DNA from: a virus
Taxonomy: Duplodnaviria; Caudoviricetes
Length of the DNA stretch: 28,308 nucleotides
Reading direction: 5' to 3' (one strand)
Virus record (IMG/VR): IMGVR_UViG_3300012952_000092
Location: 1 to 28,308 of that record
Below, one piece after another: positions 1 to 17,898 of the stretch; position 1 is the first letter of the stretch, and each line of letters opens with the position of its first letter. The translations under genes and the position numbers were made by a program. Under the pieces are notes generated by a model. That model saw only the letters and a list, made by a program, of their open reading frames with translations. It was not told where the DNA came from and searched no databases.

Positions 1-985
1 GTAATGAGTTAGCACAAACATTTAAGAAACATCCACCAGCAAAACAAACATCCTCTGTAAGATAATTTTCTTTTCTTAGTTGAGATATCCATTTAACAAT
101 AGCTTCTTCATAATGATATTGAATATAGTAAGCAATATCCTCCTTAGATAAACCTTTTAGATGATCAAATACTTCATTATATTTGTGGAAGTTAATCCAT
201 GAAGGACCATAATCATACTTGTCAATCTCCATTGTCTTTAATGGAAACTCCTCAGAGAATGTGTATGGTGGATTTCTATCACATGGTTTACCATATGCAG
301 ATAGTCCCATAACCTTACCCTCTGCACTAAAGGTTACTACATCCTCATAGTCTTGTTTATTTTTATAGTGATACCTATCACCTTCTTCTTTAACTGCTTT
401 AGCCATGTTATATGTCATGACTGCCATGTTCATATAATAATCACCAAAAGAATTTTCACCTGATCCAGACTTCATAGTTTGGTTTGTGAATATTCTTTTA
501 TCTTTATCAAAATATCCTATACTATTATTTTCATATCCCTTAGTCATTCCTGCTGCAAAATCCCATTGGGCAGCACCCATACCATCTAATGTCAAATAAC
601 TTCCAGAGTTAAATGGTGAGGTATAAACAGAAGATGCAGCATGGCACATATGATGACTAACATACCATAACTTTGCATTTGGAAATTGATTTTTAATAAA
701 TCTAGCAACTGTTGCATCAGCAGTATGTTTATTGCATAGATGAACTGCACTAGGAACATACACTACAATATCAATATCTTCTTTAGGAACATCTCCTAGT
801 ACATAATCAATTGATCTATATGGCCATGTACCATCATATTTTATTCTACTTAATCTTGCCTCATCAATACTACAAATGTGTTTACCGTTGTCAAAGAAAG
901 TTGCTCCAGAATCATGGATCCTAGAGAACTCATTTACATTGTTACCTTCCCAAGTAACAGAACTATGCAGACCCAGTATTTTCAT
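1..985 (-). CDS. Carbamoyltransferase, NodU/CmcH family (5' part; runs off the left edge)
   Basis: Not in the ORF track. Manual translation from ATG at 985 gives MKILGLHSS...IHDSGATFFDNGKHICSIDEARLSRIKYDG...; near the window edge it reads VCFAGGCFLNVCANSL. These match the HDxxA, ExRxxRxK and AGGxxLNxxAN motifs of NodU-family enzymes. Confidence 0.88.
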   Translation of the reverse strand, partial: MKILGLHSSVTWEGNNVNEFSRIHDSGATFFDNGKHICSIDEARLSRIKYDGTWPYRSIDYVLGDVPKEDIDIVVYVPSAVHLCNKHTADATVARFIKNQFPNAKLWYVSHHMCHAASSVYTSPFNSGSYLTLDGMGAAQWDFAAGMTKGYENNSIGYFDKDKRIFTNQTMKSGSGENSFGDYYMNMAVMTYNMAKAVKEEGDRYHYKNKQDYEDVVTFSAEGKVMGLSAYGKPCDRNPPYTFSEEFPLKTMEIDKYDYGPSWINFHKYNEVFDHLKGLSKEDIAYYIQYHYEEAIVKWISQLRKENYLTEDVCFAGGCFLNVCANSL

Positions 986-17435: not shown

Positions 17436-17549
17436 CTATATATCTGCGTCTTTATTTAGCAATTCTATCCATTCTTCATCAGGAGTAAAAACGATAGGAC
17501 CTTCTAGGATTCTTTCTTTTAATTCATCCTGAAGTTCTTCGTCGTTCAT
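17436..17549 (-). CDS. 37-aa acidic microprotein MNDEELQDELKERILEGPIVFTPDEEWIELLNKDADI
   Basis: Manual translation; fills the gap after the structured RNA; TATAAT at 17572-17567 upstream. Confidence 0.55.
   Translation of the reverse strand: MNDEELQDELKERILEGPIVFTPDEEWIELLNKDADI
17453..17459 (-). promoter_or_regulatory. Late promoter CTAAATA
   Basis: Late box about 40 nt upstream of the glycine-zipper gene. Confidence 0.45.
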
Positions 17550-17570: not shown

Positions 17571-17654
17571 TATAGGTTGGTAGGTTCCTATAGCCGCTTA
17601 TCCTGAACCTACCAAAGGGGATAACCGCAGTCGTAGGTAGCGAAACAAACGACT
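17571..17654 (-). ncRNA. Candidate structured RNA (three hairpins with a 10-11 bp loop-loop/pseudoknot pairing)
   Basis: AGUCGU/ACGACU, UUAUCC/GGAUAA and UAUAGG/CCUAUA stems; UUGGUAGGUUC is complementary to GAACCUACCAA; extended -10 TGtTATAAT at 17668-17660. Confidence 0.6.
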
Positions 17655-17673
17655 CATACATTATAACACAAAA

Positions 17674-17746
17674 TAGGAGTGGTGGGAGTCGAACCCACAC
17701 TGTAGAGATTTTAAGTCTCCTGTCTCTGCCGTTGGACTACACTCCC
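17674..17746 (-). tRNA. tRNA-Leu(UAA), 73 nt, short variable loop, CCA not encoded
   Basis: GGGAGTG/CACTCCT acceptor stem, GGAGA-CTTAAAA-TCTCT anticodon arm, GTGGG-TTCGACT-CCCAC T arm, A73. Confidence 0.9.
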
Positions 17747-17750
17747 TAAG

Positions 17751-17823
17751 CGATTCAGGTAGGACTCGAACCTACAACCAATTGCTTAGAAGGCAATTGC
17801 TCTATCCTTTGAGCTACTGAATC
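17751..17823 (-). tRNA. tRNA-Arg(UCU), CCA not encoded
   Basis: GATTCAG/CTGAATC acceptor stem, ATTGC-CTTCTAA-GCAAT anticodon arm, GTAGG-TTCGAGT-CCTAC T arm. Confidence 0.93.
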
Positions 17824-17826
17824 AAA

Positions 17827-17898
17827 TAGGACTACCGAGAATTGAACTCGGTTCACACCGTTATAAGCAGTGGGCATTAACCAATATGCGATAGTCCC
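17827..17898 (-). tRNA. tRNA-Ile(UAU), CCA not encoded
   Basis: GGGACTA/TAGTCCT acceptor stem, CACTG-CTTATAA-CGGTG anticodon arm, CCGAG-TTCAATT-CTCGG T arm, A73. Confidence 0.9.

Follow-up and report, generated by a model that had tools for sequence, protein, structure and literature searches.

The window analysed here is the whole of a 28,308-base virus record, a fragment of a T4-like cyanophage in which T4-like head genes are present. A terminator follows g23 in the window, and the best matches of this g23 are found in Synechococcus and Prochlorococcus phages, at 73% at best. On the minus strand a cluster of three tRNA genes is followed, 20 nt after tRNA-Leu, by a compact RNA element and, 27 nt further on, by an open reading frame (ORF) of 37 residues. 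The features of this region are as follows.

17674..17898, minus strand: tRNA cluster upstream of the element, three tRNAs
17827-17898, minus strand: tRNA-Ile(UAU)
17751-17823, minus strand: tRNA-Arg(UCU)
17674-17746, minus strand: tRNA-Leu(UAA)
17660..17668, minus strand: extended -10 box, sequence TGTTATAAT; predicted +1 is G17653
17577..17653, minus strand: the element in full, 77 nt, comprising P1 hairpin, UG linker, P2 stem and H-type pseudoknot P3
17630..17653, minus strand: P1 hairpin; GUCGU (17653-17649) with ACGAC (17634-17630), 14-nt loop
17635..17648, minus strand: P1 loop, exchangeable slot; UCGCUACCU at 17643-17635
17595..17627, minus strand: P2 stem; CGGUUAUCC (17627-17619) with GGAUAAGCG (17603-17595)
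17605..17618, minus strand: loop 1 (CCU) and P3 5' strand; strand UUGGUAGGUUC at 17615-17605
17588..17594, minus strand: loop 3, GCUAUAG; family consensus GC-N-A-Y-AG, in the divergent class GCGAA
17577..17587, minus strand: P3 3' strand GAACCUACCAA
17550..17576, minus strand: AU-rich spacer, 15% GC, likely single-stranded
17436..17549, minus strand: 37-aa ORF, start at 17549; a neighbour, not a fixed partner

The letters and coordinates given in a preliminary description of this DNA were confirmed, both for the extended -10 box (17668-17660) and for the pairings AGUCGU/ACGACU and UUAUCC/GGAUAA, as was the complementarity of UUGGUAGGUU (17615-17606) to AACCUACCAA (17586-17577). The element is also richer in GC than its surroundings, as had been remarked, at 0.49 compared with 0.15 in the 3' spacer and 0.37 in the whole window. 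Our model R1 scores it at 68.7 bits and has no other strong match within the window. The AU-rich spacer is a candidate RNase E region, with presumed cleavage, and a candidate ribosome entry site. Neither Pfam nor PHROG has a match for the 37-aa ORF, which is a singleton among the 18 clusters of proteins encoded downstream of the family. At the other end of the tRNA cluster (17920-17901, minus strand), the cluster's own extended -10 box, TGCTATAAT, is followed 6 nt on by GTCAAGAC and then by tRNA-Ile; this stretch looks like a GUCAA...GAC P1 hairpin reduced to its two ends and is possibly a remnant of the element.

The strands of the element follow one another in the order P1-P1'-P2-P3-P2'-P3', and its core is an H-type pseudoknot supported by covariation. 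In P1, pairs 2-5 show compensated variation across 184 promoter-anchored contexts, as scored by a script that required the first G-C pair. P2 is paired in all 800 cells of alignment A1, where six of its eight pairs vary on both sides, and in 99.9% of cells in A2, a more diverse, model-fitted alignment. Its register is C-G, G-C, a G.G mismatch and then 6 bp, the mismatch position being A.G or C-G instead in 25 of 205 cases. The outermost pairs, C17627-G17595 and G17626-C17596, are formed in 100 of 100 rows with 12 changes from G-C to U-A, while the extension of P2 by CUGC/GCGG suggested earlier is in the wrong register and is broken in 12 of the 100 rows.

P3 in the window is a helix of 11 bp (UUGGUAGGUUC/GAACCUACCAA), a length attained in only 2 of 1000 dinucleotide shuffles. 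The decisive evidence for P3 comes from 105 distinct metagenome cores found with a search pattern that left the distal strands free, because part of the P3 covariation in A1 is a one-base-pair indel, the 8-bp and 9-bp classes differing by a whole base pair gained or lost on both strands. The 105 cores contain 22 different 5' strands, and 524 of their 525 distal cells are paired, compared with 343.6 on average and at most 384 in shuffles (n = 1000); all 105 have AA at the start of the tail. A covariation check on homologues had been proposed for the long helix, and this result supports the view of the element as a functional structured RNA. The architecture first described does need revision. 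The long complement is real and has a length of 11 bp rather than being a match between 10-nt loops, and the hairpin UAUAGG/CCUAUA on which a kissing loop depended is not conserved, as just 2 of 259 distinct contexts have CCUAUA after the element. Since, in addition, G17587 is used by the pseudoknot helix, the fold is an H-type pseudoknot and not a kissing loop, whose partner strands would both lie in conserved hairpin loops, as these do not. The second ACCUAC, which had been thought to allow a switch between folds, occurs in one subtype of the P1 loop only and is not altered along with the pseudoknot strand where that strand varies. We also considered, and dropped, a pairing between the P1 loop and either the pseudoknot strand or loop 3, as no compensation was seen in either case.

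The UUC/GAA pairs beside the junction and the C-U-U of loop 1 are nearly invariant, and from this invariance we predict that C-U-U forms major-groove triples on the UUC/GAA pairs. Loop 3 has GC-N-A in 71 of 72 loci found by promoter, P1 and UCGCUACC, that is, without fixing GC-N-A in the search. Folding of the single sequence gave a z-score of -1.25, not significant, by a method that cannot model pseudoknots. A likeness to the ends of 5S rRNA and to tRNA D- and T-loops was discarded, as the positions concerned covary as pairs of the pseudoknot.

The element belongs to a conserved RNA family of viruses of ocean and lake cyanobacteria and is not a one-off. A structural descriptor found 368 distinct contexts in cyanophages and metagenomes, or 363 once five chance rows with loop 3 GCGA, no P1 and GC-rich, coding-like sequence were removed. 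Homologues were found by blastn in P-SSM2, P-SSM5, S-SKS1, S-SCSM2R, SynMITS9220M01, S-B43, S-B05, RB11-B, S-H68, S-SM2, Bellamy and ACG-2014f. The pattern scans covered IMG/VR and metagenomes, and we estimate that about 1400 stored stretches of the metagenome collection hold the family; loose patterns gave mostly chance matches, which were filtered by structure, and 15 of 249 rows were removed from one set for want of the loop strand. Model R1 matches strongly just once in each of the 14 positive records and of two further records, and not at all in T4 or in 11 of 11 other T4-like records (including S-SSM7, syn9, S-RIM2 and P-RSM6). These absences are provisional and apply to the main class only, because R1 misses the divergent class described below, on which it scores 16.4 bits or nothing. 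Within GTDB, 120 pattern matches from 39 of the 64 parts included no member of the family, the best scoring 24.2 bits as against at least 41.4, with host cyanobacterial genomes lying outside the model search. The distribution of the family among T4-like phages is patchy. At four loci (L454, L502, L585 and L595) the element runs into only part of a tRNA, whose 5' half is present and then gives way to unrelated letters, which suggests insertion or recombination at a tRNA gene. At the S-SM2 locus (L614, GU071095.1), the annotated tRNA coordinates are 55 nt away from the positions given by Rfam.

The -10 hexamer lies exactly 6 nt 5' of the first G of P1 in 178 of 198 contexts, and this spacing is absent in the other 20. 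In the usual layout of sigma-70 promoters this G falls at +1, so the RNA is predicted to begin on a paired G, here G17653. The promoter of its own claimed for the element at the outset is supported by the fixed spacing. A -35 box accompanies 92 of 131 promoter-anchored P1 variants. The window copy has none at the standard spacing, and a standard promoter scan missed its extended -10 box because the scan requires a -35; the RNA of the window could also arise by read-through from the tRNA promoter. The exceptions to the +1 position include two loci at which the core comes after a manA RNA, which lies directly 5' of it (L724, 105-293; L658, 1-167). The manA RNA is also found between tRNAs in S-B43 and ACG-2014f (L436, 2130-2340; L437, 2132-2342), and both placements mean that manA can occur outside the 5' UTR of a protein gene.

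What follows the element varies. Among 205 contexts, a tRNA comes next in 99 (93 of them at 3-4 nt) and an ORF in 88, drawn from 18 protein clusters and lying at 18-20 nt in 67; neither is found in 15, and the contig ends in 3. This 18-20 nt spacing is tightly held, and the spacer in the 88 ORF contexts has a mean GC of 14.5%. In the larger set a tRNA comes directly after the element in 146 of 368 contexts, 105 being Arg(UCU) and 34 Pro(UGG), consistent with the association with tRNAs noted initially; upstream, a tRNA lies within 90 nt in only 1 of 179 contexts. An intrinsic terminator directly follows the element in 3 of 357 contexts, all of one lineage, and a fresh promoter in 8. As the remaining 346 have neither behind them, nearly all copies are the 5' leader of another transcript, a mode of synthesis that fits a role in cis and a stand-alone role equally well. 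The data show the element to be independent of the gene downstream. The mixture of tRNAs, unrelated ORFs, promoters and terminators that follow it favours a stand-alone RNA over a riboswitch, and its retention whatever follows speaks against a riboswitch tied to one gene and, with less force, against a role in cis only. The riboswitch-like leader put forward in the preliminary description is accordingly disfavoured, there being no recurring class of downstream gene and a tRNA coming next in many phages. In P-SSM2, PSSM2_175 (L011, 2573-3241) is annotated as purM, has no AIRS domain and matches phrog_3704, the true purM being the next gene.

The family core was found in contigs of four of five RNA libraries (X1, X3, X7 and X11), with flanks of other phages, and was absent from the fifth, X8; these contigs were picked for holding words of the family, may include DNA and are silent on strand, ends and level, their depth giving no ranking of the element against its flanks and gaps in their cover carrying no weight. 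At L058 a further conserved stretch (931-992) lies about 400 nt before the element and has contig cover in three of three RNA libraries.

The length of P1 ranges between 14 and about 190 nt over a core that is kept throughout. Its loop is an exchangeable slot, being a tetraloop in some members and holding other hairpins in others. In the window the slot holds UCGCUACCU, a loop motif kept in 20 distinct P1 hairpins with U as the free base after the motif in all 20. A search by promoter, P1 and UCGCUACC only gave 72 loci, 71 of them with the core. Searching with the motif loop exposed the divergent class of core, which has GCGAA in loop 3; in each of its 19 real members loop 3 reads GCGAA or GCGACAA and P1 has a UCGCU loop. 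The window loop UUUCGCUACCU (17645-17635) is the exact complement of a conserved 11-mer of 23S rRNA in four of four unrelated non-cyanobacterial bacteria. When 88 loops were tested against 23S rRNA, the 11 of the window subfamily ranked first, with matches of 9-11 nt (p <= 0.01 each, 300 shuffles); the 11 loops are not independent and the match had been noticed before it was tested. The bases flanking the complement vary, and its CCU is often paired inside the hairpin. Elsewhere in 28 phage records there is no enrichment of the 9-mer UCGCUACCU, with 15 matches compared with 21 in the control. The loop of the window may be a protein-binding or an rRNA-pairing motif. The RNA might be a natural expression scaffold, in which a paired 5' end and a 3' pseudoknot would shield an exchangeable loop that acts as a guide or decoy against the 23S stretch CCUAAGGUAGCGAAA or the protein that handles it; we regard this as quite unlikely.

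At L764 (~440-530, minus strand) the promoter is followed by a loop UCGCUACCUUGG with 12 possible pairs to the 23S site, and then by a different structured RNA that is not the pseudoknot core and has no Rfam match. Further recurring structured modules, again with no Rfam match, lie within the P1 loop or immediately behind the core, in three sets (L584, L616, L675 and L725; L582, L596, L675 and L694; L590, L593, L627, L669 and L689).

The core of the window P1 loop, UCGCUACC, is also found in a hairpin loop of RNA D of T4. RNA C and RNA D (species 1 and 2) are small stable RNAs of T4 whose function is given as unknown in the accessible parts of papers of 2022 and 2025 (PMC9697503, PMC12685909). 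Like the element, they are small RNAs adjoining tRNA-Arg in the tRNA cluster of a T4-like phage; unlike it, they lie 3' of tRNA-Arg and are classed as late RNAs. The RNA D hairpin, ACCGG-GUCGCUA-CCGGU (L560, 2165-2149, minus strand), has its loop GUCGCUA closed by G-C pairs and is unchanged in five of five aligned relatives, while the middle of RNA D varies. The 10-mer GGUCGCUACC of RNA D also occurs in the P1 of eight member contexts. Neither RNA C nor RNA D matches the core model: R1, which is weak on divergent forms, has no match in T4 or four relatives, and a blastn search with RNA D had no cyanophage among the matches listed. By these searches the element is not a homologue of RNA D over the whole RNA, and the UCGCUACC loop alone is common to the two.

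Rfam 15, whose families include CyVA-1, ToxI and ribozymes, has no match on the window element, either at the gathering score or at E <= 10, and none on the element in 58 homologous or related loci, where manA and wcaG were found nearby and served as positive controls. The element is therefore neither manA nor wcaG, both of which Rfam places close by at separate positions. The candidate memberships named at that stage (type III antitoxin, abiF, manA, wcaG, PhotoRC-II and glnA) all fail on the Rfam result. ToxI folds as an H-type pseudoknot with triples, and the element resembles ToxI, AbiQ, CptI and abiF (RF03085) in having such a pseudoknot with predicted triples and a plausible decoy role; as a type III antitoxin RNA or abiF it was rejected, since it is present in single copy with no tandem repeats, no adjoining toxin gene and no Rfam match. 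The put RNA of HK022 and EAR (epsC) are structured RNAs found just downstream of a promoter and ahead of an operon, as the element often is; it has no sequence or Rfam match to them, and some copies have nothing behind them to antiterminate. The HDV ribozyme has the order P1-P2-P3-L3-P3'-P1'-P1.1'-P4-J4/2-P2', and both strand order and a location 5' of the tRNA speak against the element as an HDV-like or theta ribozyme, with the conserved-C feature present. Theta ribozymes, as described in the portions available of PMC10879173, are also compact pseudoknotted RNAs beside phage tRNAs and likewise conserve the C of a C-N-A strand that precedes the last helix, a likeness of pattern only; they are nested double pseudoknots 3' of a tRNA, whereas the element is a single H-type pseudoknot 5' of one. 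The closest in kind are manA (RF01745) and wcaG (RF01761), which, from the accessible part of PMC2864571, are orphan structured RNAs of the same T4-like cyanophages, often at the same loci, and occur like the element within tRNA clusters and in regions 5' of accessory genes; the element differs in sequence and fold, in being anchored at +1 and in its exchangeable P1 loop.

The sections of PMC2864571, PMC9602691 and PMC9964418 available to us list manA, wcaG, PhotoRC-II, glnA, abiF and CFrI as RNAs of cyanophages, with the element absent, and those of PMC5737381 and the Minerva preprint (10.64898/2026.09.22.753630) make no mention of it. The supplements of PMC2864571 and PMC10085705 contain no long sequence match, gapped alignments being able to hide such matches. 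We found no description of the motif in the literature; it may be listed unnamed in the alignments of PMC10690425 (~10,000 viral candidate RNAs) or in the supplement of PMC5737381. We conclude that the element represents a real, uncatalogued RNA family of cyanophages with strong covariation, in kind an orphan structured RNA of phages.

As to its function, we tentatively prefer, with a confidence that stops somewhat short of even, a putative stand-alone stable RNA acting in trans as a decoy for a host protein. Transcription from a host-type promoter would start at +1 on the paired G and so shield the 5' triphosphate end. An RNA of 65-80 nt, its 3' end held in the pseudoknot, would then be freed by RNase P where a tRNA follows or by RNase E within the AU-rich spacer. 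Such a course would be in keeping with the preference of RNases J and E for non-triphosphate ends and with the cutting of AU-rich single strands by RNase E, both as reported in the parts accessible of PMC10989914 and PMC8682795. The binding surface would be formed by the invariant loops, with C-U-U on UUC/GAA and with UGC and GC-N-A at the P1/P2 junction, and the slot in the P1 loop, here with UCGCUA, would add a second activity. Against the decoy reading count the synthesis of nearly all copies as a 5' leader, the tightly held spacing to the ORF, the exceptions to the +1 position, the absence of the core from library X8 and the patchy distribution; nor did a partner gene emerge. A somewhat unlikely alternative is that the element is a leader acting in cis on the transcript it heads or during its synthesis, either as a 5' stabiliser against RNases J and E or as a read-through element that binds host RNA polymerase for operons of tRNAs or accessory genes. 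HK022 put RNA is a promoter-proximal RNA that binds polymerase in this way, and the position of the core, nearly always at +1 (178/198), the continuation of ~97% of contexts into a tRNA or ORF with no terminator and the narrow spacing to the ATG all agree with such a leader. However, the copies before a terminator (three) or a new promoter (eight) would have nothing to act on, a 5' stabiliser needs P1 only, yet the invariant bases sit in the pseudoknot loops, and the element has moved among unrelated loci.

The decoy reading must also be set against two others that make more of the invariant loops. A riboswitch-like aptamer would sense a metabolite or ion and control how the following gene is translated or the following tRNA processed, or it would sequester a small signalling molecule. 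The SAM-II, preQ1 and guanidine-III aptamers are H-type pseudoknots with triples and invariant loop bases, as the element, its triples predicted, may be, and its neighbours include purM and other accessory genes; the same phages have in manA and wcaG two RNAs proposed as riboswitch candidates in the available part of PMC2864571. We nevertheless consider an aptamer improbable, given the lack of a recurring downstream gene class, with a tRNA next in 146/368 contexts, the lack of an overlapping terminator or ribosome-binding site, and an alternative ACCUAC pairing that shows no compensation. Still less can be said for a putative catalytic RNA, possibly a rearranged HDV-like relative, in which the invariant C of GC-N-A near the first nucleotide would have as its target either a separate RNA or the 5' end of the element itself. 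The likeness to HDV is limited to short motifs: loop 3 of the divergent class and its UCGCU loop (19/19) resemble the J4/2 and L3 sequences of HDV. The P1 loop is short and of GAGA type in most members, the strand order is not that of a nested double pseudoknot, no P1.1 pair is conserved, and the G preceded by the cleavage site in HDV is here already the predicted start. Size, pseudoknot and invariant loop bases do agree with what is quoted for candidate ribozymes in the accessible text of PMC10085705, and tRNA-linked theta ribozymes exist in phages according to that of PMC10879173, but these lie 3' of tRNAs rather than 5', and no Rfam ribozyme matches at E <= 10. A catalytic element thus appears very improbable.

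The family adds an abundant, well-covarying member to the short list of cyanophage RNAs, and its presence in the cultured model phages P-SSM2, S-SM2, S-SKS1 and ACG-2014f makes it directly testable. A promoter-anchored pseudoknot that takes a cargo of 4 to ~185 nt would provide stable RNA with a natural scaffold. The loop common to the element and T4 RNA D gives a concrete handle on the old question of what the stable RNAs of T4 do. If the loop were indeed directed at the 23S stretch or at the protein that handles it, the UCGCUA loop of RNA D would mark a ribosome-directed small-RNA strategy, one common to the T4-like phages of cyanobacteria and enterobacteria.
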